This document shows, piece by piece, positions 7,807 to 25,934 of a stretch of 32,000 nucleotides of DNA. Numbering within the stretch: position 1 is the first letter of the stretch; every line of letters begins with the position of its first letter. The position numbers were made by a program, and so were the translations under genes. Source of the DNA: an uncultured Methanoregulaceae archaeon. GTDB taxonomy: Archaea; Halobacteriota; Methanomicrobia; Methanomicrobiales; Methanospirillaceae. The notes under the pieces were generated by a model. It was not told where the DNA came from and made no database searches. It saw only the letters and a program-made list of their open reading frames with translations. The DNA lies in the NCBI GenBank assembly GCA_963841015.1, contig CAWJAX010000004.1, positions 12,040-44,039 of the forward strand. Reading direction: 5' to 3'.

Positions 7807-7896
7807 AGGAATACGTTAGATTACCTTTGTCGGGAAATACAAAAAATTATTCGCAGATTAGAAAAAGTAGTGGGCTTACTTAAAAAAAATGAGAAA

Positions 7897-8647
7897 TCAG
7901 GGAGCCTGCCGGACGATAACCGAGGCCGACTCGTCAAACGGGTTCTTCCGCAATGCAAGGTTGAAGAGATAAGGGTAATGGTTTTAAGATATTCCATATA
8001 GATGATCCACTCGTGGATCAACCGGGTATACGCACGCTGGATATCGGGGGTGAGATGGCTTTTGTCGGATGGAGGCAATGCGGACAAGTCGCCCCGTGCT
8101 TTCAGCTCTTCGGTCAGGTGGCTGAGCGCAAGAATAAGGTCCGTGAATGATTCGTGCTCAAAGACCATGGGGTTTTCCACCAGGCGCAAAAGGAACTCCT
8201 CGTGATCGATCAGAAACCTCCGGAAATCTTCCAGGTCAATCCGGGTAAGTGAGGCACTGCACGAATAATCATCAAGGCATTTTTGCATATCCTTAAACCT
8301 TGCCATATCCCAGGTGGCAGTGACTACCAGGCGTTTTTTCACCGGACCAATACGTTCATCGCCACCGGTCAACCGGGCAAGAAGCGGCGTCCCGAACGTG
8401 GAAAAGAAGGTGCCGATGACCATGTTCAGCTTCTCCACTTCTGCTGTTTTTCCCGGGATTCCAGCAACGGGTCAATGATAAGCGTGACAATCAGCACTTC
8501 TATCGGTATGAAAGCCAGGTCCCCGACAAAGAAGATGGACAGATGGTGCTCATCATGAAAGATCAGGTAATGGGCAGTAAACAATACAAGAGACAGGAGG
8601 ATGAGCCCTGATGCAATAATCAGTTTCCACCAAGTGTCTTCTTTCAT
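7897..8647 (-). CDS. Conserved membrane-anchored protein, interrupted by two frameshifts
   Basis: ORFs 8426-8647 (MKEDTWWKLIIASGLILLSLVLFTAHYLIF...) and 7821-8438 (MEKLNMVIGTFFSTFGTPLL...) are continuous as one protein; a second frame change near 7995 gives HYPYLFNLALRKNPFDESASVIVRQAP*. Confidence 0.7.
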
Positions 8648-8696
8648 TTACCTTCTCCGGTTACCTTGTTGAGCGAGCAGACAATGGACCACAAGG

Positions 8697-9560
8697 ATGA
8701 GAGATATATCTGGGAGAAAAGAGAAAATGTCTGCTATGACATCAGGGGAGAAAACAGAGAGTCACACAGACCCGAAAAAATCCTGGAGATGCACCGTATG
8801 TGGTTTTGTCCTTGCAGGTGAAAAGCCGCCTAAGGGCTGCCCCGTATGCCACAGCCCGTCCCATGAATTTATTCAGGAAACGGACCGGGTACACCTCACC
8901 TATGAGGGTAAGCCATTTGATGTCCTGCTGATCAACGGCAGCACGCACCGCGCCGGAAACACCGGTTACATGGCCGATATTGCTGAAGAGTATCTCCGTG
9001 AACGGGGGGTGAGTTATCGCAGGTATAACCTGAGCGAGTACCGCATCGATCCCTGCTGGTGTTGTTATGCCGTGCGGGCTCAGTCCTGCACCTACCCGTG
9101 CCGGAACAAGTATGACGATACGCCCGCCTTCCACGAGATGCTTGTCGCATCGAAAGCCGTCATTGTTGCCTCACCGATCAACTGGAACGGTATGTCGGCA
9201 CGCCTCAAGATCTTCCTTGACCGGACGACCTGTCTTGAAAATCTCTACCACCTCAACAAACCCGGCCTGACCGAGGGGAAGGTGGCGGGTATCCTTGTCT
9301 GCGGCCACGAAGACGGAGCGATAAAGACCTCCATGGATATCTGGCTGAATTTCCAGCAGATGGGATATGTACTTGCGCCATTCGGTATTGCATTCAGGAC
9401 GCACGGGTCGCAGTTCAACAGCAGCACGGACCGGGAATTCTTCCGGAACGATGAGCTGATTGTACGCCAGACAAAGGGCGTTGTGAACAATGTGATCGAA
9501 CTCATGAGGCTCGGTAACGAATCACAGCTGAAAGGGAAACTCGTGCCGGTCACTGAATGA
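8697..9560 (+). CDS. Rubredoxin-like domain fused to NADPH-dependent FMN reductase/iron-sulfur flavoprotein-like domain
   Basis: WRCTVCGFVLAGEKPPKGCPVC rubredoxin-type pairs then DVLLINGSTHRAGNTGYMADIAEE flavoprotein domain; start may be at 8727. Confidence 0.85.
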   Translation: MRDISGRKEKMSAMTSGEKTESHTDPKKSWRCTVCGFVLAGEKPPKGCPVCHSPSHEFIQETDRVHLTYEGKPFDVLLINGSTHRAGNTGYMADIAEEYLRERGVSYRRYNLSEYRIDPCWCCYAVRAQSCTYPCRNKYDDTPAFHEMLVASKAVIVASPINWNGMSARLKIFLDRTTCLENLYHLNKPGLTEGKVAGILVCGHEDGAIKTSMDIWLNFQQMGYVLAPFGIAFRTHGSQFNSSTDREFFRNDELIVRQTKGVVNNVIELMRLGNESQLKGKLVPVTE

Positions 9561-9649
9561 ATAGTAGCCAGAAGGGTATTATCCCCATGAAAGGGTATCC
9601 TTCTGAAACGAGTCCTGAAGAAATTTTTATAATAATCCTTTTTTTATCA

Positions 9650-9930
9650 ACCATCGGAAAAAACGAGCCTCATATTCTCGTTCTGGCTGGGTTTCTGAGG
9701 CCAGGATGGGATAAGTTAGGTGGCAAAGTTCTCCTCAATTTAATGGCCTTTGGCGACCTTTCAGTGAGGTGCAAATCTGCCGTATTTTGGCAAACAGAGC
9801 GAATATATGGCGTATTTTCCACAGGAACCGAAAAGGAGCATAATCCAGAGATTTCAGAATTTGTCCGGTATAAAAGACGGAAAAACGGAGCCCAATTTGG
9901 GCTTATTTCCCCATTGATACCATTATCCCT
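9650..9930. repeat. Dispersed repeat copy B
   Basis: GAGCCTCATATTCTCGTTCTGGCTGGGTTTCTGAGGCC...TTTGGCAAACAGAGCGAATAT...GGAGCCCAATTTGGGC; matches copies A and C. Confidence 0.8.
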
Positions 9931-9970
9931 CATAGCATCTTTTCCTGTCTCAACAATTCAGAATTAACAG

Positions 9971-10693
9971 CTAACCGTAAATCGTAATGATATAGTATAT
10001 CCCGACTACGATGAAAACCAAAGCAACCGCCCTCCGGATCCAGACCTCCGCTATTCCTATTCTCTGCACAGTTCCTTTGCACTTTCCTGCGCCTTTTACA
10101 AGAAGATATGAAATTAGAATGACCGGCAATCCTGTCGCAAGTGCGAACACCGCCGGGATGACCAGCGGATCCCCCGCACCAATCGCGAGCGGGATGAGCA
10201 TGGCAAAGAAGAGTACGGCGGAAAACGGACAGAAACTCAGCGCAAAGATAACCCCCAGCAGGAATGCCCCCAGGTATCCCTTGTCTGCAAGCCGTGCCGG
10301 TATCCCGGACGTGAACCCGGAGAACCAGTCTCCTCCGGGAAGCCGATCGAAATGGAAGATATCGAGAAGATAAATGCCGCACAAGACCAGGAACGGTCCG
10401 AGCAGAAGTTCCCCGTAATGCTGGAGTCCCAACGCCAGGGTCTGGAGATTCATCCCAAAGAATACAATAGCTGATGCGACTGCGATATACGCCGCCATCC
10501 TGCCGAGGGTGTACACGAACCCGGTGAGCAGGGTATGACGGCTGTTGTCAATCCTCTTCGAGATATAGGCAATGGCGGTGATATTGGTCGCAAGGGGGCA
10601 GGGGCTGATAGCGGTCATCAGCCCGAGGAAAAAAGCGGCAATAACAGGGACGGGGCTTTCCCCCATCGTCCCGAGAAATTGCAGGAGATCCAT
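9971..10693 (-). CDS. arsG: CcdA/DsbD-type permease, ArsG-like (aminobenzylarsenical efflux family)
   Basis: 240 aa; FFLGLMTAISPCPLATNITAIAYISKR, FALSFCPFSAVLFFAMLIPL; directly downstream of an ArsF-like gene. Confidence 0.75.
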   Translation of the reverse strand: MDLLQFLGTMGESPVPVIAAFFLGLMTAISPCPLATNITAIAYISKRIDNSRHTLLTGFVYTLGRMAAYIAVASAIVFFGMNLQTLALGLQHYGELLLGPFLVLCGIYLLDIFHFDRLPGGDWFSGFTSGIPARLADKGYLGAFLLGVIFALSFCPFSAVLFFAMLIPLAIGAGDPLVIPAVFALATGLPVILISYLLVKGAGKCKGTVQRIGIAEVWIRRAVALVFIVVGIYYIITIYG

Positions 10694-10694
10694 T

Positions 10695-11195
10695 TCAGGT
10701 GAGATCCCCGTTCAGGCGCCGTGAGATAACATTTGTGAGATATGCCTTGTATTTCTCTTTATCCCCGGTCAAGTACCAGACGTCCATATTCTGTTGCCGG
10801 TGAAAACCGTTGGTATCGTAAATTCCAAACCAGAGTGAGGACCCGGTCACACCATATTTTGCTGAAAGGACAGCGTTCTCCGGCAGATCATAGTTGACAT
10901 GCGCAAAGACAAGTCGGCCTGAAACAAGTTCGTCTTTGAAATTGGCATTCACTGTTTTTTCCGCGAGGTCCCCGACTGCGATGCAGGATGAACACTGGTT
11001 GTTGCCATGAAAGTGGTAGATCTCCACCCGTTCAACGGAGCTGTTGATACCCGTTGCTCCGGGTGGTGATGTGTACTGCTGATTGACGGCAGGTAATTTC
11101 GCAGGCGAAGTGCACCCGGCTGCTAAACCGCTAGCAACAATCAGGGCGATAAACAATACTACCAGGTAAATTCGTTGAAGGTCTGTCATAATCAC
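10695..11195 (-). CDS. arsF: ArsF-like lipoprotein with thioredoxin-like CxxC
   Basis: 166 aa; signal/lipobox (ASGLAAGCTS), VEIYHFHGNNQCSSCIAVGDLAEKTV; adjacent to ArsG-like permease. Confidence 0.7.
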   Translation of the reverse strand: MIMTDLQRIYLVVLFIALIVASGLAAGCTSPAKLPAVNQQYTSPPGATGINSSVERVEIYHFHGNNQCSSCIAVGDLAEKTVNANFKDELVSGRLVFAHVNYDLPENAVLSAKYGVTGSSLWFGIYDTNGFHRQQNMDVWYLTGDKEKYKAYLTNVISRRLNGDLT

Positions 11196-11467
11196 TCGTT
11201 ATCCGCAAGCAGCGAACGCATCACACCGGAAACTTCTGAAGACAGGTCGTCAGTTTGTATCAGCGAGAGGCAGCAGATAGTATCCTCCTTCATCCAGCTG
11301 ATAAGAGCAAGCTTGTCACCGTCTCTGATGTTCGCTTTTTTCCGGATCTCTTTGGGAAGCACAATCTGCCCCCGGTTATCCATTGAAAGTACTGCTTCGA
11401 CCTGGCACGCCAGATTGCTATCAGATGTACAAGATCTGTCTGAGCGGTTTGGGTTCATTTGGGTCAC
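11192..11467 (-). CDS. AbrB/MazE/SpoVT-type small protein (HgcC-like)
   Basis: 91 aa; VEAVLSMDNRGQIVLPKEIRKKANIRDGDKLALISW; overlaps both neighbours by 4 nt. Confidence 0.8.
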   Translation of the reverse strand: MTQMNPNRSDRSCTSDSNLACQVEAVLSMDNRGQIVLPKEIRKKANIRDGDKLALISWMKEDTICCLSLIQTDDLSSEVSGVMRSLLADNE

Positions 11468-11850
11468 GCACTCTCATAAGCGAACTTCTGTCCCTTCTCT
11501 GTAAGCCGGTAGATGATCCAGTTACCATGCTGTTCTCCTTCTATAAGATCAACTCTTTTAAGCCCCGTGAGATGGTACGAGAGTTTCGAATCTGCAATTC
11601 CAATACAGTCCTTGATAATGCAGACACAGAGCGGCTGGATGGCAAGCAGGTAGAGGATAGTCAACCGGACAGGATCGGAAAGTGCGTTATGTATCGCGCT
11701 CATCTCCATGATATTTTTTGGTTTCGGCAGGTGTCTGCACAGCCCATTCACCCCTCCGACTGCATCGAGATTACAGGGTACTGAAGCGGGTATATCTATC
11801 CTGTGCACGGCCTCCTTTTTGGATTTTACCGCTGGTCTTTTTATCATCAA
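11464..11850 (-). CDS. arsR: ArsR-family transcriptional repressor
   Basis: 128 aa; ALSDPVRLTILYLLAIQPLCVCIIKDCIGIADSKLSYHLTGLKRVDLIEGEQHGNWIIYRLT wHTH with CVC. Confidence 0.9.
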   Translation of the reverse strand: MMIKRPAVKSKKEAVHRIDIPASVPCNLDAVGGVNGLCRHLPKPKNIMEMSAIHNALSDPVRLTILYLLAIQPLCVCIIKDCIGIADSKLSYHLTGLKRVDLIEGEQHGNWIIYRLTEKGQKFAYESA

Positions 11851-11919
11851 AAAATCCCCCGGCTATTTCAAACAAACATGAAATGCGTAGCTATAAATAT
11901 CTTGCCCGACAATTTTGGA

Positions 11920-11935
11920 TTCAATTAAATTTGAA
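11920..11935. promoter_or_regulatory. Candidate ArsR operator 1: TTCAATTAAATTTGAA
   Basis: Inverted repeat TTCAA-N6-TTGAA upstream of the ArsR gene; 14/16 match to each of the two sites at the second ArsR promoter. Confidence 0.55.
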
Positions 11936-12117
11936 ATTTCCTGAATGAGGATGACGAATAGTGGCTCTCTGTGAAGGATGCGTTGGGTGGGGCGAGGATC
12001 CCCCGGCTCTTTTTTTGAAACGGCAATAATTTTGGAAATATTTCGCTTAAGATACAGAATTGGAAATCTATCTTTCAAAATCACGATGATATCGGATTAA
12101 CAAAGAGGAAAATATCC

Positions 12118-14789
12118 ATGGATAAAAACGATCTTAAACCGGCGATTGAGACAGTCACGCTCCAGATTGGTGGAATGGACTGTACCTGCAACGCCGATCT
12201 GCTAGCCAGAAAACTGGATGCTCTCACCGGCATCCGTAGCCACGAGATTACGCCGGTTACCGGCCAGGCCCGGGTCAGCTACGATCCCGAGGTTATCAGC
12301 GTCCAGGAAATCATAAGGACCGTCGCGGAGGCGGGGATGACAGCCTCACAGATCCGCAGCGAGGGACGGACGAGCACCTGGTGGCGGGAGCCACAGCAGC
12401 TGGCACTCTATGGTTGCGGGATTATCGCCCTCATCGCGTTCATCTCGGGCTACTCCGGTGCTCCGATCCTTGTCACCAATGGGCTCTACCTGCTCGCCGT
12501 CATTGTCGGGGTCTACTACCCGGCACGGAAGGCGCTGATCGCACTTCGCGCCATGACGCCAACGATCCACCTGCTCATGCTGATCGGCTCGGTCGGCGCG
12601 ATGGCACTCGGACTCTGGGGCGAAGCTGCTGTCCTGATCTTCGTCTACTCGCTCGGCGACGTCCTCGAGTCCTATGCCGTGGACAAGGCCCGCGGTGCGA
12701 TCCGGTCGCTCATGGAGCTGATGCCGAAAGAGGCGCTGGTCAGAAGAAACGGTTGCGAGTCTGTCTGTGCGGTTGAGTCGATCGGTGTCGGCGAGGTTGT
12801 CATCGTTCGTCCGGGCGAGCGGATCCCAGTCGATGGCACCGTTGTCGCAGGGTCGTCTTACGTAAATCAGGCTGCAGTTACCGGAGAGCCCGTGCCGGTA
12901 CGGTGCGAACCCGGCTCTGATGTTTTCGCCGGGACGATCAACCAGAACGGGTCTCTCGAGGTCCGGGTCACCAAGCCGGCGTCCGAGACGATGCTCTCGC
13001 GGATCATCCTCTCGGTTGAGGAGGCACAAGCACAGCGGACCTCGTACCAGCGGTTCTCGGACTCCTTCGGAAAATGGTATACGCCGGCAATGTTCGTCCT
13101 CGGCATACTCGTCGCCACCGTACCGCCGCTCTTCTTCGGCGCCGAATGGTACCCGTTCATCTACCGTGGGCTCGTTGTCTTCGTGGTCTCGTGTTCATGC
13201 GGTCTCGCCCTCTCGGTCCCCGTCGCAGTGGTGGGAGCGATGGCAAACGCAGCAAAGCAGGGAACGGTCTTCAAAGGCGGGGTCTATCTCGAGACGGTCG
13301 ATAAGGTGAAGGTGATCGCTTTTGACAAGACCGGGACCCTTACCATCGGCCGTCCTGCGGTTACGGATGTTGTAACTTTCGGTGATCTCCGGGAGGATGA
13401 ACTGCTCGACCTTGCCGGATGCATCGAGTCCAGATCCGGCCACCCGTTGGCAGCCGCAATCGTCCGGAAGGCTAAAGAAAGCGGTAAGTTCTCAGCCAGA
13501 CCTGCCTGAGAACTTCGATGAGATTGCAGGACGTGGGGTCTCGGCCACTATCGATGGACAGGCCTTCCGGATCGGCAGCCCCAGTGCCCTGCTCGAACAG
13601 GGTGTTGATACCCGCCGGGCTGAAGAAGACATTGTCCGGCTTGAGAACGAAGGCCGGACCGTTGTCCTGGTCAGTCGCGACGGTTCGCTCGCCGGACTTA
13701 TCGCGATTGCCGATGAAGTGCGGGCCGGTGCAGTCGAGGCCCTGCAACGCCTCTCCCGTGCCGGTGTCCGGACCATCATGCTGACCGGTGACAATGAGCG
13801 GAGTGCGCAGGCTATCGCACACCGTATCGGCGTTGACGAGTACCGGGCCCATCTCCTGCCAACTGACAAGGTCGACGTTGTGCGGCAGCTCAGGAAACAG
13901 TACCGGACCGGTCGCCATGGTTGGCGATGGGATCAATGACGCACCGGCCATGGCCGTTGCGGATGTCGGTATCGCCATGGGTGCGGCAGGCACGGATATC
14001 GCGATCGAAGCCGGGGACATTGTCCTGATGTCCGACGACCTCGGAAAGATCGCGTACGTCCGGGAGCTCTCCCACCGGACCGTTTCCACGATCCGGCAGA
14101 ACATCGCTGTCTCATTGATCAACGTCGCGTTCATGGTTATCGCAGCCCTCCTTGGTTACCTCGGTCTGGTCACGGGCTTGCTCCTCAACGAGGCGAGCGC
14201 TGTCTTTGTGATCCTGAACGCCCTGCGGTTGCTGAAATGGAAGAGCCCGGCAGATACCGGGAAACCGGTGGTTACGGGAGTAACTGTCACCGCTCAAGGC
14301 AAACCGAAACGGTTCCGATGGAAACGCTGGCGTCACCCGCGAATGGGGGAACCTGCTGTTCCTGCACGGAGACAACCCCGGTTGTGTCAAAGTCAATCCC
14401 AGAAACCACTAGTGCGGTAGAATCCTGTTGTTCCTGCACAGCCTCACTCGCTGAAGCACCGGCCCCGGTTGCAGAGGTTGCAAAAAGTTCCTGTTGCTGT
14501 TCCAGTGAGGCACAACCGACCGGAGCATCCGCTCCTGTTCCTAAGACCAACAATGCGAATGAACCGGGGGCATTGGAGATTGCAAAGTTCCGGATCGAAG
14601 GGCTTGGTTGTTCCTGTGAAGGCCAGATCGTTGAGAAGCAGGTAAAATCTCTTCGTGGGATTGTCAGCTTTCGGTCTGAACCCCATCACCAACAAAATGA
14701 AGGTCAGTTACGATCCCTCGATAGTTTCTATCCAGGATATTGAAGCAGCGGTGACAAAAGCGGGTGTAACTGCCATACCCTTGAAGTAA
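12118..14789 (+). CDS. Heavy-metal P-type ATPase with N- and C-terminal HMA-like domains and Cys-rich tail; about 4 apparent frameshifts
   Basis: [24 protein letters not shown] in TM, DKTGTLT at the end of ORF 12118-13509; continues in 13382-13939 (IMLTGDN), 13788-14420 ([12 protein letters not shown]), 14237-14743 (CCSC tail) and frame 0 to the stop at 14789 ([36 protein letters not shown]). Confidence 0.85.
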
Positions 14790-14972
14790 AAATGACGTAT
14801 CAAAAACATGGGCAGGGAATCATCTGGCCAGATACTTGTAGACTGATGTATTATTCCATATATTTTTAGTATAAAAAACCTGATGAAAAACTCAATCACT
14901 TTTTACGTTGATTTTCGTCAAATTACACGTCTAAAACAGTTATTAATCAGGATTATTGAGCATATCCTGACG

Positions 14973-15371
14973 TTACTTCTCCAGACGTTCTGTGCACTTC
15001 AGCGCCTGGCGCCCATTATCAGTGATGGAATAGATGATCCAGTTTCCCTGTTGTTCACCGACAATGAAGTCCTGTTCTTTAAGGATGCTGAGGTGATAGG
15101 ATAGTTTTGAGTCTGCAATTTTAACGACCTCTTTAATGACACAGACACAAAGCGGCTGGGAAAGAAGGGAGTACATAACGGTGAGCCGGATAGGGTCCGC
15201 AAGTGCCTGGTGGAGCCGGCTGCTTGCATGAAGTGCAGATGCATCTGGTATCCGGGCAAGAAGTCCTTCCATCCCTCCTTTTTTTTCGAGTTCTTTTTGT
15301 ATAGTCTCCGGGAGATCTTTGGAAAATTCGCAGCATTTTTCCTTCATGGAAGGCGTCCGTTTCCGTGCCAT
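14973..15371 (-). CDS. arsR: ArsR-family transcriptional repressor
   Basis: 132 aa; HQALADPIRLTVMYSLLSQPLCVCVIKEVVKIADSKLSYHLSILKEQDFIVGEQQGNWIIY; alternative start at 15347. Confidence 0.9.
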   Translation of the reverse strand: MARKRTPSMKEKCCEFSKDLPETIQKELEKKGGMEGLLARIPDASALHASSRLHQALADPIRLTVMYSLLSQPLCVCVIKEVVKIADSKLSYHLSILKEQDFIVGEQQGNWIIYSITDNGRQALKCTERLEK

Positions 15372-15377
15372 GGCAGA

Positions 15378-15393
15378 TTCAAATTTATATGAA
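15378..15393. promoter_or_regulatory. Candidate ArsR operator 2: TTCAAATTTATATGAA (reverse TTCATATAAATTTGAA)
   Basis: 14/16 identical (minus strand) to the 11920 site; immediately upstream of the ArsR start. Confidence 0.55.
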
Positions 15394-15430
15394 ATAACAA
15401 ACTATATATGTTTTCCATAACAATGATGTT

Positions 15431-15446
15431 TCAAGAAAATTTGAAA
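15431..15446. promoter_or_regulatory. Candidate ArsR operator 3: TTCAAGAAAATTTGAA
   Basis: 14/16 identical to the 11920 site; upstream of the permease-led operon and downstream of a TATATAT element at about 15403. Confidence 0.55.
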
Positions 15447-15503
15447 TCTTTGCTGCACATGCAGCGGGAACACGATTCAACAGATTGCATACCCCAATGA
15501 GAG

Positions 15504-16586
15504 GTGAATAATCACATGACAGATCCCATAACCGGCTCACTCCTGCTGGGGTGGACAACGCTGCTTGAGTACCTCTCGCAGCATGTCGTCACCTGCCTGA
15601 TCCCGGCGTTCTTTATTGCCGGTGCTATCGCATCTTTTATCAAAAAAGAAGCGATCCTGAAATACTTCAGCCCGGAAACGAAGAAGACCACTTCCTACGG
15701 GATTGCTTCGGTGTCAGGTACCGTGCTTGCTGTTTGCAGCTGTACGATTCTCCCGATGTTTGCCGGAATTCTCAAGAAAGGAAGCGGGCTTGGCCCGGCA
15801 ATCACATTCCTGTACGCGGGACCTGCGATCAATATCCTTGCCATAGTCTATACCGCAAAAGTGCTCGGGTTCGATCTCGGTATCGCCCGGGCAGTATCAG
15901 CAATCGTACTCTCGATTGTAATCGGTCTGATCATGATGAAACTGTTTCCACAGCATGACGTGGATACCACAAAAACGTTTGGCGCCGCCCGGAAAGCGGC
16001 TATCGCATGTGCGGACACCCGGCCCAATTGGGTCATTCCGGCATTCTTTATCTTCCTGATCGCGATCCTTTTGATCGGTACGTCAGCGCTGGATGTTTTC
16101 CTCAGGCTCCTGATCGTGTACTTCCTCTCCATGGCTGTTGCCTTCCTGTTGATCTACTATTTCACCCGTGAAGAAGTCACTGACTGGGGATATGAGATCT
16201 GGGACCTGACCAAGAAGATTTTCCCCATCCTGGTCATCGGTACATTCGCCCTTGGGGTCCTTGCATTCTTCATCCCCCCGGAGACGTTCAAGCCGTTCTT
16301 CGGTACCAACTCGCTGCTGGCCAACTTCCTCGCAGCCTTAGTCGGAGCAATTCTCTATATGCCCACCTTGCTTGAAGTGCCGGTCATCGGCACAACACTA
16401 GGCTATCTCTCTGGTGACATGGCAAAAGGCCCGGCTCTCTCCCTGCTCCTCACCGGCCCGAGTATCAGCCTGCCGAGCCTTCTGGTGCTGTACCGGATTA
16501 TTGGCGGAAAGAAGACCCTTGCATATGCCGGCCTGGTTGTTGGGTTTTCGACAATGGCCGGTTTCATATTCGGGAATTTTTTCTGA
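15504..16586 (+). CDS. ArsP/DUF318-type permease
   Basis: 360 aa; SGTVLAVCSCTILPMFAGILKKGSGLGPAITFLYAGPAINILAI and a second half-repeat LLLTGPSISLPSLLVLYRIIG. Confidence 0.9.
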   Translation: MNNHMTDPITGSLLLGWTTLLEYLSQHVVTCLIPAFFIAGAIASFIKKEAILKYFSPETKKTTSYGIASVSGTVLAVCSCTILPMFAGILKKGSGLGPAITFLYAGPAINILAIVYTAKVLGFDLGIARAVSAIVLSIVIGLIMMKLFPQHDVDTTKTFGAARKAAIACADTRPNWVIPAFFIFLIAILLIGTSALDVFLRLLIVYFLSMAVAFLLIYYFTREEVTDWGYEIWDLTKKIFPILVIGTFALGVLAFFIPPETFKPFFGTNSLLANFLAALVGAILYMPTLLEVPVIGTTLGYLSGDMAKGPALSLLLTGPSISLPSLLVLYRIIGGKKTLAYAGLVVGFSTMAGFIFGNFF

Positions 16587-16598
16587 GGTGAAGAACAT

Positions 16599-16859
16599 AT
16601 GAGCGATGATAAACCCTGCTGTGCCGCTGACGCGCTCCGGCGCATACGGCAGGTGAAGATTAACGGGATCCTGACGGGTATCACACTGCTCGATGAGAGC
16701 ATTGCAGAAATACGAACGCAGAACTATGGGAGCGAACCGGAGATCCGTGTCGCTCTCCTGAAGAAGATCCGGATCTACAATTACGTTCCCAAAAGCGTTG
16801 AAGATGAATATGCAAGGATCCTGATGGAAGAATATAAAAAAGCCCTCGCAAAAAACTAA
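16599..16859 (+). CDS. 86-aa conserved protein of unknown function
   Basis: MSDDKPCCAADALRRIRQVKINGILTGITLLDESIAEI...YEYARILMEEYKKAL-like; 12 nt after the permease stop. Confidence 0.75.
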   Translation: MSDDKPCCAADALRRIRQVKINGILTGITLLDESIAEIRTQNYGSEPEIRVALLKKIRIYNYVPKSVEDEYARILMEEYKKALAKN

Positions 16860-16892
16860 TACAAAAAAATTTGAATAACTTCTGGAGATACC

Positions 16893-17129
16893 ATGACAAA
16901 AATCGAAATTCTCGGAACCGGGTGCGCCAAGTGCAAACGGCTCTTTGCCAATGCCGAGCAGGCAGTAAAGGACCTGAAGATTACGGCAGACGTGGTCAAG
17001 GTTGAGGACCTGGATGCGATTGTCGAGGCGGGTGTCATGCTGACACCTGCACTCTTCATCAATGGCGAACTGCGGGCTGAAGGCCGGGTTCCCTGTGTGG
17101 AAGAAATCATAGCAATGCTTAAGGAGTGA
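16893..17129 (+). CDS. Thioredoxin-family protein (redox-active disulfide protein type)
   Basis: 78 aa; IEILGTGCAKCKRLFANAEQAVKDL...TPALFINGEL. Confidence 0.9.
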   Translation: MTKIEILGTGCAKCKRLFANAEQAVKDLKITADVVKVEDLDAIVEAGVMLTPALFINGELRAEGRVPCVEEIIAMLKE

Positions 17130-17599
17130 AAAGAGTGGCAGAAACACCAACATGTTCATGTGGACAAAACGAACCGAAACGGATAATCTTTCCCTGTGCC
17201 GGGCAGGCTAACACCGGGCAGCTTACGAACCTTGCAGCTATTCAGCTGACGGAAGAAGGCTACGGGAGTATTGCCTGTGCTTCGCTGCTAGCAATCGGTT
17301 CTGAAGGTCTGGTTAAGAATGCAAAGGATGTCGATGAAGTTCTCGTCCTCGACGGCTGCCCTATGATGTGCGGCAAGAAGATTGCAGAGGCGCAGGGTGT
17401 GCCGGTGGGACAACACCTTGTCATGACTGAACTCGGTATCACCAAAGGGCCGTCGAAATCCTATACCGAAGCTGACGTCGAGAAGATCGTTGCTGCGTGC
17501 TGGAAGGGAGAAGGCCGGAAGAAGGATGCAGCAAAACCGGGAAAAAAGAGCGGTGGAAACGACAGCGGGTGCGGCTGCGGGTGTGGCGGGACCTGCTGA
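17126..17599 (+). CDS. DGC-domain putative zinc-binding protein with CGCGC tail
   Basis: 157 aa; VLVLDGCPMMCGKKIAEAQG plus C-terminal SGCGCGCGGTC; GTGA overlap with thioredoxin gene. Confidence 0.8.
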   Translation: MKRVAETPTCSCGQNEPKRIIFPCAGQANTGQLTNLAAIQLTEEGYGSIACASLLAIGSEGLVKNAKDVDEVLVLDGCPMMCGKKIAEAQGVPVGQHLVMTELGITKGPSKSYTEADVEKIVAACWKGEGRKKDAAKPGKKSGGNDSGCGCGCGGTC

Positions 17600-17624
17600 T
17601 TGCGGATAGTGAGCACCGGGGCGG

Positions 17625-17929
17625 ATGGAAACGACCGAAGAAGACGAGATGCGTACCTGGGCTGAAGAGTACGCAAAAAAGAATGGCTGGGTGCTGAACC
17701 CGGATAAGAAGATACTGGATACCGTCATCCGGGGGCTGGTCCGCAATAAGAAGAAATTCGGAGAGCAGTACTGCCCGTGCCGGCTCGGTCCGGGGACAAG
17801 GAGAAGGACCGGACGATCATCTGCCCATGCATCTACCATAAAGACGAGATCGCACAGGACGAGCACTGCCACTGCCAGCTCTACTATCGGAAGAATGACG
17901 CCGAGCAGATGAAACGGGAGAAGAAGTGA
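17625..17929 (+). CDS. Ferredoxin:thioredoxin reductase catalytic-subunit-like protein, one frameshift
   Basis: KNGWVLNPDKKILDTVIRGLVRNKKKFGEQYCPCR, then in another frame DKEKDRTIICPCIYHKDEIAQDEHCHCQLYYRKND*; CPC/CPC/CHC arrangement of FTR. Confidence 0.85.
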
Positions 17930-17945
17930 CCTGAGGTCAATCCGT

Positions 17946-18356
17946 ATGATACCACCACGATACAAGCGTCTGGAGATTGAATGGAAACATTTCGCGGTTG
18001 GCGATGCAACCTGTGAGCGATGCGGGAATACCGGTGAAGCGCTCAAAGAGACTGTCGAAGAACTAAAGCGTGAGTTTGCTCCTGCAGGAGTGAAGATCAA
18101 CCTGACCGAGACGCTCCTTGACAAAACACGCATAGCGGAGTCAAACGAGATCCGGATGAACGGGATGTTGATCGAAGACCTGCTCGCTGCCGGGGTTGTT
18201 TCGACCGACTGTCCTTCCTGTGGTACACTTGCGGGGGAGAGTACCTGCTGCCGGGCGATAGAGATTGACAATGAACGATTCGAGGATATACCGGCAGAAA
18301 TGATCAAGAAAGCAGTGTACCTCGCATTGAGCATGAGCACCCCTTCTAAAAAGTGA
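17946..18356 (+). CDS. DUF2703-like protein (thioredoxin-like, Cys-rich)
   Basis: 136 aa; [50 protein letters not shown]...[10 protein letters not shown]. Confidence 0.8.
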
Positions 18357-18393
18357 ACTAACTATTGAAGAAAAAAGGCATCCAGGATTACGT

Positions 18394-19470
18394 ATGACAA
18401 CGACAAAACAACTCTCCTTCCTTGACCGCTACCTGACCCTCTGGATTTTCCTTGCGATGGCTGTCGGTATCGGTATTGGGTACTTTTTACCTGCGGTACC
18501 GCTCGTGATTACGGGCCTTTCGGTCGGGACAACGTCGATTCCGATTGCCATCGGGCTCATCCTGATGATGTACCCGCCGCTCGCTAAGGTGAAGTACGAG
18601 GAGCTTGGGAAAGTGTTCCAGGATCGGAAGGTGCTGGGCTTATCGCTCGTCCAGAACTGGATTGTCGGACCGGTACTGATGTTTGTCCTTGCCGTCATCT
18701 TCCTCCGCGACCAGCCAATGTTCATGTATGGCCTGATCCTCGTCGGCATTGCCCGCTGTATCGCGATGGTTATTGTCTGGAATGATCTCGCTGAAGGCGA
18801 CTGTGAGTACTGTGCTGCTATTGTGGGCCTGAACTCGGTTTTCCAGGTCTTTTTCTACTCGGTCTATGCATGGTTCTTCATCACCTACCTGCCCCCGCTG
18901 CTTGGCATTGGGACGGGTTCTGAGGTCTCGATCACGATGCTCCAGATTGCCGAGAGTGTCTTCATCTATCTCGGCATCCCGTTCATTGCCGGCATTGTCA
19001 CGCGTTATATCCTGATCCGCGTGAAATCAAAGGCGTGGTACGAACAGGTATTCATCCCGAAGATCTCCCCGATTACGCTGATTGCCCTGCTCTTTACGAT
19101 CATCGTGATGTTCTCCCTGAAAGGGGAGTATATTGTCAACGTCCCCCTTGCTGTCGTCCAGGTTGCAATCCCGCTGCTCTTCTACTTCGTCATCATGTTC
19201 TTTGCGAGCTTCTGGATGTCCTGGCGTCTCGGTGTTGATTACCCTAAGTCGGCATCGCTCTCATTCACGGCGGCATCCAATAACTTCGAGCTTGCAATTG
19301 CAGTTGCCATTGCTGTCTTTGGCATTGCATCACCAGCGGCATTCGCCACGGTGATCGGGCCGCTTGTCGAAGTGCCCGTTCTGATTTCACTCGTGAATGT
19401 CTCGTTCTGGCTTAAGAAGAGATGGTATGGCGGGAAGAGTGATGATACGTGCAGCCCTTCGTTACGGTGA
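18394..19470 (+). CDS. acr3: Acr3-family arsenite efflux transporter
   Basis: 358 aa; [50 protein letters not shown]. Confidence 0.97.
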
Positions 19471-19486
19471 AAAAACAGGTGGTCTG

Positions 19487-19900
19487 ATGAAAAAGAAAGT
19501 CTTGTTTATCTGCACCCATAACTCGGCCCGCTCACAGATGGCAGAAGGGTATATGAAGGCAAAGTATGGTGACCGCTACGAAGTATCCAGTGCCGGAACT
19601 GAAGTAACCCGGGTCCACCCGATGGCAATTGAGGTCATGAAGGAGATTGGAATCGACATCACCAGTCACCGTTCGAAACTAATCGATGAGTTCTTCGGTA
19701 AAGGAATAGGTACCGTAGTGACGGTCTGCGATTCTGCACAGAAAGCCTGTCCGTTTTTCCCGGGTGCAAAGGAAGAAATTCACCGGAGTTTTCCGGATCC
19801 TTCGGCATTTAATGGGTCTGATGAGGAGATCCGGGCCGGGTTCCACCGCGTGAGAGATGAGATTATCCAATGGATCGATGAATATTTTACAAGAAGGTAA
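19487..19900 (+). CDS. arsC: Thioredoxin-coupled type arsenate reductase (LMW-PTP fold)
   Basis: KKVLFICTHNSARSQMAEGYM P-loop; VTVCDSAQKACPFFPG cysteines; start at ATG 19487. Confidence 0.95.
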   Translation: MKKKVLFICTHNSARSQMAEGYMKAKYGDRYEVSSAGTEVTRVHPMAIEVMKEIGIDITSHRSKLIDEFFGKGIGTVVTVCDSAQKACPFFPGAKEEIHRSFPDPSAFNGSDEEIRAGFHRVRDEIIQWIDEYFTRR

Positions 19901-19904
19901 AACC

Positions 19905-20741
19905 ATGACTGACGAACACGAAATACGGAAACAAGTACGGAAAAGCTACGCAAAGGTTGTTGAAGGGAGTAGCGGATGCAGCTGCGGCCCAAATTCCTCT
20001 TGCTGTGGCGGAGCGACAACGGCAGAACAGATAAGCGCGAAGGTCGGCTACTCAGCCGAGGAGATGGGGGCTGTCCCGGAGGGGGCAAATCTCGGCCTCG
20101 GGTGCGGGAACCCGCTTGCCCATGCAGCGATTCATGAAGGGGACACAGTCCTAGATCTGGGATCCGGTGCCGGGTTCGATTGTTTCCTTGCTGCCCGGAA
20201 AGTCGGAAAGACAGGACGGGTTATCGGGGTTGACATGACGCACGAGATGCTGCTGAAAGCACGGGAAAATGCGAAAAAGTCGGGTGCAACCAATGTAGAG
20301 TTCCGGCTCGGGGAAATCGAAGCCCTGCCGGTTGCTGATAACTCCGTTGATCTTATCATCTCAAATTGTGTTATCAATCTCTCTCCTGACAAGGCGAGAG
20401 TCTTCCGCGAGGCATTCCGGGTGCTGAAGCCGGGGGGATTGCTCATGGTTTCAGATATTGTCCTGACCCGTGAACTTCCGGAATCAGTGCGTACTTCGAT
20501 GGAAGCCTATGCCAGCTGCATCGCGGGTGCGAGCCTGAAAGATGCCTATCTTGACCTGATCCGAAAGGCACATTTTTCCGATGTAGCGGTACTTGAGGAA
20601 ACCGCCGTACCTTTCGGGCTGGCAGTGGCAGACCCCCTTATAAAAGCAGGTTTTGAGTCCCTGTCCCTTTCGAAAGATGAATACACACAAATCACGGAAT
20701 CGGTGAAGAGTGTGAAGGTAAAGGCGATAAAAAGAAGATGA
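19905..20741 (+). CDS. arsM: Arsenite methyltransferase
   Basis: Starts MTDEHEIRKQVRKSYAKVVEG; GLGCGNPLAHAAIHEGDTVLDLGSGAGFDCFLAA SAM motif; conserved Cys in LIISNCVINLSPDK and YASCIAGA. Confidence 0.96.
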   Translation: MTDEHEIRKQVRKSYAKVVEGSSGCSCGPNSSCCGGATTAEQISAKVGYSAEEMGAVPEGANLGLGCGNPLAHAAIHEGDTVLDLGSGAGFDCFLAARKVGKTGRVIGVDMTHEMLLKARENAKKSGATNVEFRLGEIEALPVADNSVDLIISNCVINLSPDKARVFREAFRVLKPGGLLMVSDIVLTRELPESVRTSMEAYASCIAGASLKDAYLDLIRKAHFSDVAVLEETAVPFGLAVADPLIKAGFESLSLSKDEYTQITESVKSVKVKAIKRR

Positions 20742-20774
20742 CTGTTAGATTATAATCCAATCCTTTGAATCAAG

Positions 20775-21140
20775 GTGAGAGAAATTACTGACGAAAGTCC
20801 ATTGATCCTTATCACCTGCTCGGGTGTTTCCAATACCGGGAAACTGACGGCACAGGTCGCGGGAATCCTTGCGCAGAAAGAACCGGATCTCTTTGAGGGG
20901 CACGTGCATGTAAAGCAGTCCACCCGCGATATGGAAGCGGTAATCAATGGTGGTAAGGTGGTGGTGATTGACGGATGCGGAGATCGGTGTGCAGCAAAGA
21001 AACTCAAAAGTTTTTTCATTACCCCCCATATCCATATCATCGCGACTGAAGAGGGAATCGAAAAGAACGGAATGGGTGACCCGAAGTTCGAAGAGATTGA
21101 AACGCTCATCGCGGCGGTTCGCAGGGAAGTTCGGCGATAA
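20775..21140 (+). CDS. Second DGC-domain putative zinc-binding protein
   Basis: 121 aa; LILITCSGVSNTGKLTAQVAGIL, VVVIDGCGDRCAAKKL; GTG start. Confidence 0.8.
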   Translation: MREITDESPLILITCSGVSNTGKLTAQVAGILAQKEPDLFEGHVHVKQSTRDMEAVINGGKVVVIDGCGDRCAAKKLKSFFITPHIHIIATEEGIEKNGMGDPKFEEIETLIAAVRREVRR

Positions 21141-25744: not shown

Positions 25745-25934
25745 TTTAAATTCTCCTTATATAGTACTACAGATTTTTGTTCTCATGCTTTATGAAAGAT
25801 AATCCCTGAAAATCTACCTGAAATTATCTGCATGATAAAATATTTTCTCACTAGCGATTTTTGAAAATCAGGGGAGGGAATATATACCCCGTTAACGGAT
25901 AACCAGTTATCAACTGCCAGTGGAAGGATGCGTT

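Follow-up and report, generated by a model that had tools for sequence, protein, structure and literature searches.

The 32,000-nucleotide stretch of DNA from an uncultured Methanoregulaceae archaeon analysed here (the window) encodes two ArsR/SmtB-family regulators, and the initial annotation had proposed that three 16-bp palindromes at their promoters form one operator, read by both proteins and tying three transcription units together. This raises the question of whether these repeats are operators of the adjacent arsR genes and, if so, which genes they would control. Judging from the sequence and its relatives, we think it very probable that four near-palindromes with the core TTCAA-N6-TTGAA are autoregulated operators of the ArsR/SmtB type, placed on compact bidirectional archaeal promoters. 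The features of the locus are collected in Table 1.

Table 1. Genes, candidate operators and promoter elements of the two arsR loci (positions in the window)
Feature	Position	Strand	Sequence	Basis or remark
ArsG-family permease	9971-10693	-		NCBIfam NF040495, 267.6 bits
ArsF-family protein	10695-11195	-		NCBIfam NF040494, 102 bits
HgcC-like AbrB protein	11192-11467	-		NCBIfam NF040962, 100.1 bits
arsR1, ArsR/SmtB-family regulator, 127-128 aa	11464..11850	-		Pfam HTH_5, NCBIfam NF033788
arsR1 proximal candidate operator	11867-11882		forward TTCAAACAAACATGAA, minus strand TTCATGTTTGTTTGAA	exact TTCA-N8-TGAA
TATA-like element	11892-11900		TATAAATAT, minus strand ATATTTATA	between arsR1-side operators; sequence read
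arsR1 distal candidate operator (site 1)	11920-11935		TTCAATTAAATTTGAA	sequence read, pattern search
Conserved micro-ORF	11961..12029	+	(V)ALCEGCVGWGEDPPALFLKRQ-stop	18-28 codons, CxxC...DPP
P1B-type heavy-metal ATPase, divergent from arsR1	12118..14790 (3' end approximate)	+		TIGR01525
arsR2, ArsR/SmtB-family regulator, 132 aa	14973..15371	-		Pfam HTH_5, NCBIfam NF033788
arsR2 proximal candidate operator (site 2)	15378-15393	-	TTCATATAAATTTGAA	sequence read, pattern search
TATA box	15403-15409		TATATAT	between arsR2-side operators; conserved in modules
arsR2 distal candidate operator (site 3)	15430-15445		TTCAAGAAAATTTGAA	sequence read, pattern search
Divergent ars-associated gene set	15516..21140	+		Pfam matches
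One-mismatch near-site	16860-16875		TACAAAAAAATTTGAA	pattern search allowing mismatch

Two ArsR paralogues and two pairs of dyads

Both proteins score above the family profile cut-offs, with 38.1 (ArsR1) and 43.8 bits (ArsR2) for HTH_5 (cut-off 22) and 68.8 and 70.8 bits for NF033788 (cut-off 55). The AF2 model of ArsR2 (pLDDT 80.6) shows the ArsR winged-helix fold, with helices at residues 44-51, 60-71, 76-83 and 87-99, strands at 103-108 and 111-116 and a further helix at 118-131, and its best Foldseek matches are CadC, NolR, HlyU, SmtB, SqrR and CzrA. Neither a Pfam search nor the ArsR2 model revealed a second domain in these proteins of 127-132 aa. ArsR1 starts at TTG 11850 or ATG 11847. 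The two are paralogues, 50% identical over 104 aa, and the segments they had been reported to share are indeed identical, namely PLCVC, GNWIIY and the recognition-helix segment IADSKLSYHL. In addition to a PLCVCV motif, ArsR2 has a CC pair in its N-terminal part. Among its orthologues C75 and C77 do not vary and C13 and C14 hardly do, which makes all four candidate ligand residues. As a guess from gene context and these Cys motifs, As(III)/Sb(III) is most likely the inducer, and ArsR1, beside a Cd/Zn/Pb-type ATPase, may sense a different metal.

An exact search of the 32-kb window for TTCA-N8-TGAA gave four matches against 0.85 expected, a number reached in 1 of 100 shuffles. All four are confined to the regions upstream of arsR1 and arsR2, where they form two pairs with spacings of 53 and 52 bp, respectively, and by our own arithmetic the chance of such an arrangement at arsR genes is of the order of 1e-7. 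With one mismatch allowed, the window yielded 11 rows, both strands counted, against 6.9 expected, which is not a significant excess. Sites 1 and 2 lie where the initial annotation had placed them, whereas site 3 has the sequence reported for it but begins one base earlier (15430-15445, not 15431-15446); as described, two of the 16 bases of site 1 are changed in site 2 and two in site 3, and the TATATAT noted near 15403 was found. A fourth site, at 11867-11882, had been missed. It lies between the TATA-like element and the arsR1 start, and it is this site that adjoins arsR1; site 1 is upstream of arsR1, as had been said, but as the distal member of the pair, facing the divergent micro-ORF/P1B ATPase unit. 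Site 2 ends 6 nt before the arsR2 ATG, and site 3 faces the permease-led ars operon. The description as 16-bp palindromes holds for the outer arms, TTCAA/TTGAA, but not for the asymmetric central 6 bp. The transcription units involved would potentially number four, on two bidirectional promoters, instead of three.

The gene set divergent from arsR2 begins with an ArsP_1-type permease, an 86-aa protein, a thioredoxin-like protein, a DGC protein and a frameshifted FeThRed_B, followed by DUF2703, Acr3, ArsC (LMWP type), an ArsM-like methyltransferase and a second DGC protein. A Shine-Dalgarno sequence, GAGGTGA, lies 8 nt before ATG 15516, and from the orientation and spacing of the genes we infer a single operon. 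Within it, the one-mismatch near-site follows AATATAAAAA by 20 nt and precedes the thioredoxin-like gene by 17 nt. This near-site, possibly a weak internal operator and promoter, belongs to a block, TAATACAAAAAAA(T/A)TTGAATAAC, that is kept in loci L001, L014, L021, L074, L018, L034 and L052, also where their flanks are different. On the other side, arsR1 is the first gene of arsR1-hgcC-like-arsF-like-arsG, and the order after arsR1 is repeated behind its orthologues in L081, L083 and L086-L089. The N-terminal piece of the divergent P1B ATPase matches TIGR01525 with 339.9 bits. The gene is broken by at least three frameshifts (~13506/13508, ~13903/13905 and within 14330-14705), pointing to a pseudogene or to assembly indels; its orthologues are uninterrupted and run off the locus end after 859 aa (L086/L087) or 892 aa (L091).

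Conservation across Methanomicrobiales

The comparison covered loci that encode the ArsR recognition helix, 80 from Methanomicrobiales genomes and 80 from metagenomes. Since all 160 were retrieved via the recognition-helix peptide, the comparison shows co-occurrence of helix and motif, with loss of the motif beside a differing helix represented by a single case. A site was present within 150 bp upstream of arsR in 70 of the 80 genome loci, and motif density there was 8.9/kb, compared with 0.58/kb in the remaining non-ORF DNA and 0.10/kb where ORFs cover the sequence. Among the independent metagenome loci a site was found in 72/72 and a pair in 49, with 8.9/kb against 0.064/kb elsewhere. Beside arsR the motif is enriched ~15-fold relative to other non-ORF DNA and up to 140-fold relative to all other DNA, well above the background frequency that would have spoken against the initial proposal, and it keeps its position and spacing in orthologous promoters while the flanks drift. 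Specificity and conservation together support the proposed reading of one operator shared by both ArsR paralogues.

The pairs themselves are highly regular. Their spacing is 51-53 bp in 47 of 49 distinct pairs, the T preceding TGAA is invariant in proximal and distal sites alike, and in 37 of 49 modules 8-9 nt separate the end of an AT hexamer from the proximal operator. In an information-content profile of 32 modules, the only conserved parts are both dyads, the TATA hexamer and a short TT.ccAT block, with no second conserved TATA-like block between the dyads. In 18 of 23 arsR2 orthologues the site begins 16-22 nt upstream of the inferred ATG; for the other five (L003, L004, L006, L012, L016), at -31 to -49, the offset was counted from the start of an incomplete tblastn match. 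All of the 23 except L009, where the upstream DNA is too short to show it, have a second site 51-53 bp further upstream. The arsR2-type consensus is TTCATATTAATTTGAA for the proximal and TTCAAATTTTNTTGAA for the distal site. arsR1 orthologues keep the proximal site as TTCATGTTTGTTTGAA or TTCAT(A/T)TT(A/T)GTTTGAA and the distal one as TTCAAATTTAATTGAA, and the TATA-like element is kept as ATATTTATA in L081-L097. The cassette is constant beside arsR, while the divergent gene varies (ArsP permease, FTR-beta, DGC, Trx3, 86-aa protein, ArsC or Acr3), the partners being drawn from one pool of ars-associated genes. What is found is a 16-bp dyad that is sized for one dimer, sits at the regulator's own promoter, is conserved in orthologues and is rare elsewhere.

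A proposed switch around a shared TATA box

The cassette consists of the distal TTCAA-N6-TTGAA, ~21 bp, TATA, ~9 bp and the proximal TTCAT-N6-TTGAA, with the arsR start ~6-20 nt further on. In orthologues as in the window, the proximal site separates TATA box and arsR start, and it would overlap the transcription start; the element at 11892-11900 is, by its sequence, presumed to be the TATA box of the arsR1 side. Each module has one conserved TATA-like block, as expected of an archaeal bidirectional promoter, and in several loci the divergent start codon is just 5-14 nt past the distal site, which leaves no room for a separate TATA box. As the hexamer is off-centre between the dyads, the two operators would sit differently relative to their start sites. 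By eye, purine-rich BRE-like sequence flanks the TATA on both sides.

In the mechanism that we propose, one ArsR dimer would bind each 16-bp dyad via its two recognition helices (residues 87-99, DSKLSYHLSILKE), and the single TATA box would serve transcription either way, as it does at bidirectional promoters known from archaea. Sharing the TATA box would set the two transcription starts ~52 bp from each other, within the operators or at their edges, where bound repressor would block recruitment or initiation of RNA polymerase. The targets would be arsR itself and the divergent unit; for arsR2 this is the ars permease operon, for arsR1 the micro-ORF with the P1B ATPase. Binding of a thiophilic metal or metalloid to the conserved Cys residues (N-terminal CC and alpha-3 CVC) would release the repressor. 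Because recognition helix and half-sites are the same in both paralogues, each can probably occupy the operators of the other. For some divergent genes the AT-rich distal dyad could itself serve as TATA box.

The part of this scheme most open to another interpretation is the distal dyad, which might be bound by ArsR as an auxiliary site for cooperative autorepression, or might overlap the divergent gene's own TATA so that ArsR competes with TBP. The spacing of 52 bp corresponds to about five helical turns by our arithmetic, as would suit two dimers, and the 42 bp found in locus L082 to one turn less; the centre of the distal dyad is AT-rich and TATA-like, and with an ATG 13-14 nt past the site in some loci a leaderless start ~22 nt from the dyad centre is conceivable. 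We nevertheless consider this unlikely. A Shine-Dalgarno-like sequence stands between distal dyad and divergent start codon, both in this window and among orthologues, which implies a transcription start at the dyad or ahead of it, the spacer lacks a second conserved TATA-like block, and 52 bp matches the published start-site spacing of shared-TATA promoters (bioRxiv 10.1101/2020.01.31.928960).

Less probable again is that ArsR is a passenger gene and the dyads are bound by another regulator, either the HgcC-like AbrB protein after arsR1 or a global factor. The arsR1 operon does encode this AbrB-type DNA-binding protein; however, arsR is the sole gene that constantly adjoins the cassette while the divergent partner varies, most arsR2-type loci have the pair without an hgcC-like gene, and a 16-bp dyad with half-site centres ~11-12 bp apart suits an ArsR-family dimer. 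To our knowledge, such dyads are not typical targets of AbrB-type swapped-hairpin proteins. We see very little prospect that the dyads act in RNA, as small hairpins in transcript 5' ends: each can form a 4-7 bp hairpin and would be partly transcribed if transcription starts there, but the predicted stems are weak (-0.5 to -3.7 kcal/mol), the half-sites are invariant and without covariation, a search of Rfam gave no family match, and most of the proximal dyad is located ahead of any plausible start site for arsR. That the dyads are chance or generic AT-rich archaeal intergenic or core-promoter features without a specific regulator is hardly credible, for although the regions are AT-rich and the one-mismatch count is unremarkable, exact sites occur in the window only at the arsR promoters, and the enrichment, fixed spacing and invariant half-sites extend across the 160 loci.

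On the arsR1 side, the autoregulated bidirectional switch that we favour faces an additional element. The conserved micro-ORF, with the pattern M-A-L-C-x-G-C-V-G-W-G-E-D-P-P-x-L-F, is preceded by a Shine-Dalgarno-like GAGGATGA and occurs in 13 instances, each 29-36 nt past the distal operator, with codon-level conservation and synonymous changes. Its Trp-Gly and Pro-Pro codons form a GC hairpin followed by T6-T8, in the window a terminator-like GGGG/CCCC hairpin and T7 in the 3' part of the ORF (~11988-12016). Family searches with the micro-ORF returned no match, and covariation support for the hairpin was not found. The ATPase starts 183 bp from site 1, past this hairpin and T-tract, and control by site 1 would therefore be indirect at best. 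It is tempting to speculate that the micro-ORF acts as a leader-peptide attenuator coupled to translation, or as a metal-binding micro-protein with attenuation as a second role, gating a heavy-metal ATPase or permease, and that it is layered on a portable arsR-borne twin-operator switch with a shared TATA, an idea to which we attach a low probability. We know of no demonstration of leader-peptide attenuation in archaea, and our literature search returned bacterial cases only.

Significance and comparison with known systems

Paired dyads around a shared promoter would be an ordinary, well-conserved kind of genetic switch, a known design extended to a new clade that leaves current understanding intact. 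No description of a binding site for this widespread Methanomicrobiales ArsR clade turned up in literature searches, and TTCAA-N6-TTGAA, paired 52 bp apart around a TATA, is now a candidate operator for it. Methanoregula, Methanoculleus, Methanospirillum and Methanolinea dominate wetlands, paddies and digesters with arsenic and mercury transformation, and the motif would make their metalloid regulons predictable from sequence alone. A compact arsenic-responsive bidirectional promoter could be used for archaeal genetic tools or biosensors, and would provide a clean natural case of a shared-TATA promoter in archaea that is functional rather than noise-generating.

Among the closest parallels are SqrR/BigR, pI258 CadC with cadO and R773 ArsR, which are, as we propose for the ArsRs here, winged-helix dimeric repressors encoded beside their own operator, a 16-bp dyad that overlaps the promoter and has tetramer or pentamer half-sites 6-8 bp apart. 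The SqrR core, ATTC-N8-GAAT, bound by one dimer per 22 bp (bioRxiv 10.64898/2026.05.15.721447), has the same geometry as the present dyads. Here, in contrast, the half-sites are TTCAA/TTGAA, the host is an archaeon with TATA/TBP promoters, and the sites form a fixed-spacing pair around a single TATA. ArsR2 also differs in a conserved ~50-aa N-terminal extension with two extra helices in the AF2 model, and its sequence matches to solved family members are weak, none better than E 6e-8. The alpha-3 CVC and N-terminal Cys residues presumably resemble alpha-3N sites (CadC) and the As(III) sites of the Corynebacterium type.

SmtB, CzrA and AztR, which belong to the same protein family, use 12-2-12 imperfect inverted repeats, single or paired near the start site of divergent regulator/efflux genes (PMC8790569). 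We rejected assignment to this class (TGAACA-N2-TGTTCA type), as tetramer polarity is reversed, TGAA...TTCA there versus TTCA...TGAA here, and the spacing differs. Methanogen MsvR shares with the ArsRs studied here the type of host, an ArsR-like N-terminal wHTH and a near-identical dyad geometry, one base per half-site being different. Several MsvR boxes, TTCG-N7-9-CGAA, occupy a divergent intergenic region, overlapping one promoter at its TATA/BRE and the other at its start site, and MsvR is autoregulated (PMC3729527). MsvR, however, carries a C-terminal V4R redox-sensing domain and controls oxidative-stress genes, whereas the proteins here are single-domain and ars/metal-linked; with half-sites TTCA/TGAA (fourth base A/T versus G/C) and no V4R domain, an MsvR regulon box was likewise rejected.

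One TATA between divergent units is also known from Thermococcus kodakarensis, where divergent start sites on one TATA box have a dominant spacing of 52 bp (bioRxiv 10.1101/2020.01.31.928960), and from Pyrococcus furiosus, where they are 49-50 bp apart (PMC6640164); the ~52 bp reported here is an operator spacing and serves as a proxy for start sites. In the literature such promoters are mostly described as generating antisense RNA without function, whereas here both directions enter genes and both have a candidate repressor site. Finally, the circuit proposed by the initial annotation corresponds to the ArsR1/ArsR2 'bifan' of Pseudomonas putida, in which two paralogues of one genome, as here, have their own promoters and each repress the promoter of the other in vitro (PMC7994332). 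The binding sequences in P. putida are not identical, whereas half-sites and recognition helices are the same here, and to judge by this identity cross-talk between the two methanogen paralogues should exceed that of P. putida.

Paired dyads at the two arsR promoters

The two arsR genes of the window, both on the minus strand (arsR1, 11464-11850; arsR2, 14973-15371), encode paralogous regulators that both exceed the curated ArsR/SmtB family cut-offs in a profile search. The initial annotation had pointed to segments common to the two proteins, and alignment bears this out: the 104 aligned residues of ArsR1 and ArsR2 show 50% identity, and IADSKLSYHL, PLCVC and GNWIIY are unchanged between them. 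The AlphaFold model of ArsR2 (pLDDT 80.6) has the canonical fold, in which residues 87-99 form the recognition helix, and carries two additional N-terminal helices as well as a disordered tail with a conserved Cys-Cys pair. A model-based structure search returned CadC, NolR, HlyU, SmtB, SqrR and CzrA as structural neighbours; the sequence similarity of ArsR2 to any solved member is weak. Conserved cysteines are found in alpha-3 (C75 and C77) and, in ArsR2 orthologues, at C13 and C14. At its N-terminus ArsR2 is extended by about 50 conserved amino acids (residues 1-50), which is unusual in the ArsR family, and an invariant DLP...GG.(E/N)GL...P motif on two predicted helices of this extension is common to both paralogues.

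All three near-palindromic sites listed initially are present upstream of these genes, the third lying one base further left than recorded. A pattern search for TTCA-N8-TGAA in the 32-kb window gave exactly four matches, against 0.85 expected from shuffles, and so added a dyad on the arsR1 side that had been overlooked. The four dyads form two pairs, each consisting of a proximal site on the arsR side and a distal site on the side of the divergent gene, with a spacing of 53 bp at arsR1 and 52 bp at arsR2. A single TATA-like element lies inside each pair; the TATATAT reported between the arsR2-side dyads was found by reading the sequence at 15403-15409.

Features of the two arsR promoter regions (window coordinates)
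Feature	Sequence	Position	Strand	Source
Distal dyad, arsR1 (site 1)	TTCAATTAAATTTGAA	11920-11935		sequence read
Fourth dyad, between TATA-like element and arsR1 start	TTCATGTTTGTTTGAA	11867-11882	-	pattern search
TATA-like element, arsR1 side		11892-11900		
Proximal dyad, arsR2 (site 2)	TTCATATAAATTTGAA	15378-15393	-	sequence read
Distal dyad, arsR2 (site 3)	TTCAAGAAAATTTGAA	15430-15445		sequence read
Micro-ORF, divergent side, just past site 1	(V)ALCEGCVGWGEDPPALFLKRQ	11961-12029	+	

The dyads are unlikely to act as RNA hairpins, as their folding energies are weak and they show no covariation; an Rfam search of 11700-15700 gave no match. When one mismatch was allowed, the only extra matches in the window were a coding-region site at 10097 and a near-site at 16860-16875, and the count was not significant. 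The near-site has the sequence TACAAAAAAATTTGAA, with the thioredoxin-like gene 17 nt further downstream and AATATAAAAA 20 nt before it. Seven comparison loci whose ArsR has the segment IADSKLSYHL (L001, L014, L018, L021, L034, L052 and L074) keep the block TAATACAAAAAAA(T/A)TTGAATAAC at this position between divergent flanks, and the near-site may serve as a weak operator and promoter inside the gene cluster.

Conservation of the module across loci

We scanned one genome per species for relatives with the same recognition helix and examined the 80 Methanomicrobiales loci listed. In 70 of these, the 150 bp upstream of arsR contain TTCA-N8-TGAA, and its density there is 8.9 per kb compared with 0.58 in other non-ORF DNA and 0.10 in ORF-covered DNA. 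Metagenomes were scanned independently, starting from ArsR1; each of the 72 listed loci whose upstream DNA measured 160 bp or more contained a site and 49 contained a pair, the density being 8.9 per kb near arsR and 0.064 per kb elsewhere. In these loci the motif is thus neither at background frequency nor lost from orthologous promoters, two of the outcomes that the initial annotation had named as speaking against an operator, and the enrichment in both sets, together with the count in the window, rules out chance or AT-richness as the source of the dyads. Among the comparison loci there is a single ArsR-like gene with a different recognition helix (L074, 4385-4780), and it is without an upstream motif, one gene being too small a sample for a negative control.

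Among the listed genome loci, the dyad pair is present at 22 of 23 ArsR2 orthologues (70-93% identity), the upstream DNA of the remaining one (L009) being too short for a distal site. For 18 of the 23, the distance from the start of the proximal site to the inferred ATG is 16-22 nt; the other five have larger offsets, counted from an incomplete match start. Pairs also occur in many relatives at 46-59% identity, and the arsR1 pair of the window is nearly base-for-base the same in ArsR1 orthologues (75-86% identity). The spacing in 49 distinct pairs from the listed genome loci is 52 bp in 32, 53 bp in eight and 51 bp in seven. Beyond the bases fixed by the search pattern, the T preceding TGAA is invariant in these pairs, and the core is therefore TTCAA-N6-TTGAA at distal sites and TTCAT-N6-TTGAA at proximal sites. 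An information-content profile of 32 modules showed conservation only in the two dyads, in a short TT.ccAT block and in a tATAtA hexamer whose end lies 8-9 nt short of the proximal dyad; neither the flanks nor the GC-richer spacer are conserved. One arsR1-type module (L082, around 2921-2978) deviates from the usual 52-53 bp: its putative operators are separated by 42 bp, roughly a helical turn less, and the TATA box is thereby symmetric between them.

Gene neighbourhoods and the micro-ORF

A profile search placed arsR1 first in an arsR1-hgcC-like-arsF-like-arsG unit. On its divergent side come a micro-ORF and the gene for a P1B heavy-metal ATPase. Divergent from arsR2 is a predicted operon that starts with an ArsP_1-type permease gene and continues with thioredoxin-like, DGC, FTR-beta-like (ferredoxin-thioredoxin-reductase-beta-like), DUF2703, Acr3, ArsC and ArsM-like genes. 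Across loci the arsR side of the module is constant and the divergent gene varies (ArsP permease, FTR-beta-like, DGC, thioredoxin-like, an 86-aa protein, ArsC or Acr3), all variants being drawn from the gene pool of the window's ars operon; the operator-TATA-operator-arsR unit thus behaves like a movable regulatory cassette. A segment of about 6.8 kb (7853-14702) between the Na/H exchanger gene and arsR2 of the window is lacking in Methanoregula sp. UBA247 (L001), the closest genome locus among the matches listed; the segment comprises a flavoprotein gene, arsG, arsF, the hgcC-like gene, arsR1 and the ATPase gene. Two other loci (L014 and L021) have arsF-arsG directly after arsR2. This arrangement suggests that the arsR1/ATPase cassette was inserted or rearranged.

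The AbrB-type gene inside the arsR-arsF-arsG unit (11192-11467, minus strand) matches the NCBIfam entry 'HgcAB-associated protein HgcC' with 100 bits. An archaeal 'TA-like' gene has been described upstream of hgcA (PMC10349881); a link to mercury methylation, to which the HgcC-like gene had pointed, was rejected here, there being no hgcAB within the window. The P1B ATPase gene (12118-14790, plus strand) has at least three frameshifts (around 13506/13508, around 13903/13905 and within 14330-14705) relative to orthologues in L086, L087 and L091, whose uninterrupted frames of 859-892 aa are open at the locus end, and its region has a G+C content of 0.58-0.63 compared with about 0.45-0.55 nearby. 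The FTR-beta-like gene (17625-17929, plus strand) has one frameshift, around 17774-17807, relative to its L090 orthologue. The frameshifts in these two genes reflect either gene decay or assembly indel errors. A Prismane/CO-dehydrogenase-family gene is split into two adjacent plus-strand ORFs (25920-27137 and 27166-27894), which span profile positions 2-306 and 330-512; possible causes of the split are a stop codon, a recoded one or a frameshift.

The micro-ORF follows the pattern (V/M)ALC(E/N/Q)GCVGWGEDPPxLF over 18-28 codons, with an SD-like sequence upstream, and matches no Pfam, NCBIfam or Rfam family. Each of its 13 instances lies 29-36 nt past the distal dyad of an arsR1-type cassette, with either the P1B ATPase or a distant ArsP_1-like permease downstream. 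The invariant residues are L3, C4, C7, G9, W10, G11, D13, P14, P15 and F18, and changes at third codon positions are often synonymous. Its 3' part holds a terminator-like GGGG/CCCC hairpin, TGGGGCGAGGATCCCCCG, with a T7 tract (11988-12016, plus strand; T6-T8 across instances), which is built from the Trp-Gly and Pro-Pro codons and kept in all orthologues; a covariation test of seven pairs found no compensatory changes. The DPP motif is a potential ribosome-stalling sequence, and the micro-ORF may act as a leader-peptide attenuator, encode a small peptide that binds metal, or do both. The direct repeat ATCCCCCGGCT (11854 and 11998) was considered as a duplication scar, but coincidence fits better: one copy belongs to the Shine-Dalgarno region of arsR1, the other to the micro-ORF's Asp-Pro-Pro-Ala codons. 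A further two direct repeats, TTGGAAAT(A/C)T(A/T)TC..., lie 28 bp apart (12032-12081, plus strand) in the stretch that separates the micro-ORF from the ATPase start, and by inspection the surrounding sequence looks similar in ATPase-linked orthologues; these repeats may represent a promoter of the ATPase gene itself or a regulatory site of another kind.

Proposed promoter architecture and relation to known systems

Judged from sequence comparison, the dyads are a putative autoregulated operator of the ArsR/SmtB type, and such a predicted archaeal ArsR operator is well supported by the comparative evidence. Each module has one conserved TATA-like block between dyads 52 bp apart, Shine-Dalgarno-like sequences follow the distal dyad, and at several loci both start codons lie 5-14 nt from the outer edges of the dyads. 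In archaea, TBP binds a near-symmetric TATA box, which often makes promoters bidirectional; the spacing of the divergent starts is mostly 52 bp in T. kodakarensis and 49-50 bp in P. furiosus. We infer, as the most economical reading, that one TATA box would be shared by two start sites, each in or at the edge of an operator. By our own arithmetic the starts would lie about 26 bp from the TATA centre. Transcription of arsR would thus begin within the proximal dyad, in its outer half, with a very short leader, and divergent transcription where the distal dyad has its inner edge. With both dyads occupied by ArsR dimers, polymerase recruitment would be blocked in both directions; the putative inducer is deduced from gene context and the conserved Cys residues. 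The TATA box is off-centre and the two operators are therefore placed non-equivalently. In a less likely variant of the model, the distal dyad would be a cooperative auxiliary site or a TBP-competition site.

A literature search for archaeal or Methanomicrobiales ArsR operators gave nothing specific, and no operator description was found for the ArsR clade studied here. The dyads fall outside the SmtB/CzrA 12-2-12 consensus class because the polarity of the tetramers is reversed. They share the geometry of the SqrR operator core, ATTC-N8-GAAT, with tetramers 8 bp apart, to which one ArsR-family dimer binds in successive major grooves. The boxes of the methanogen regulator MsvR, TTCG-N8-CGAA, are of near-equal geometry and span a divergent promoter at which TBP/TFB or the start site is blocked; the dyads described here are not MsvR boxes, since the half-site base differs and these ArsR proteins are without a V4R domain. 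For the proposal that the two paralogues may share operators, the ArsR1/ArsR2 bifan of P. putida provides a bacterial precedent.
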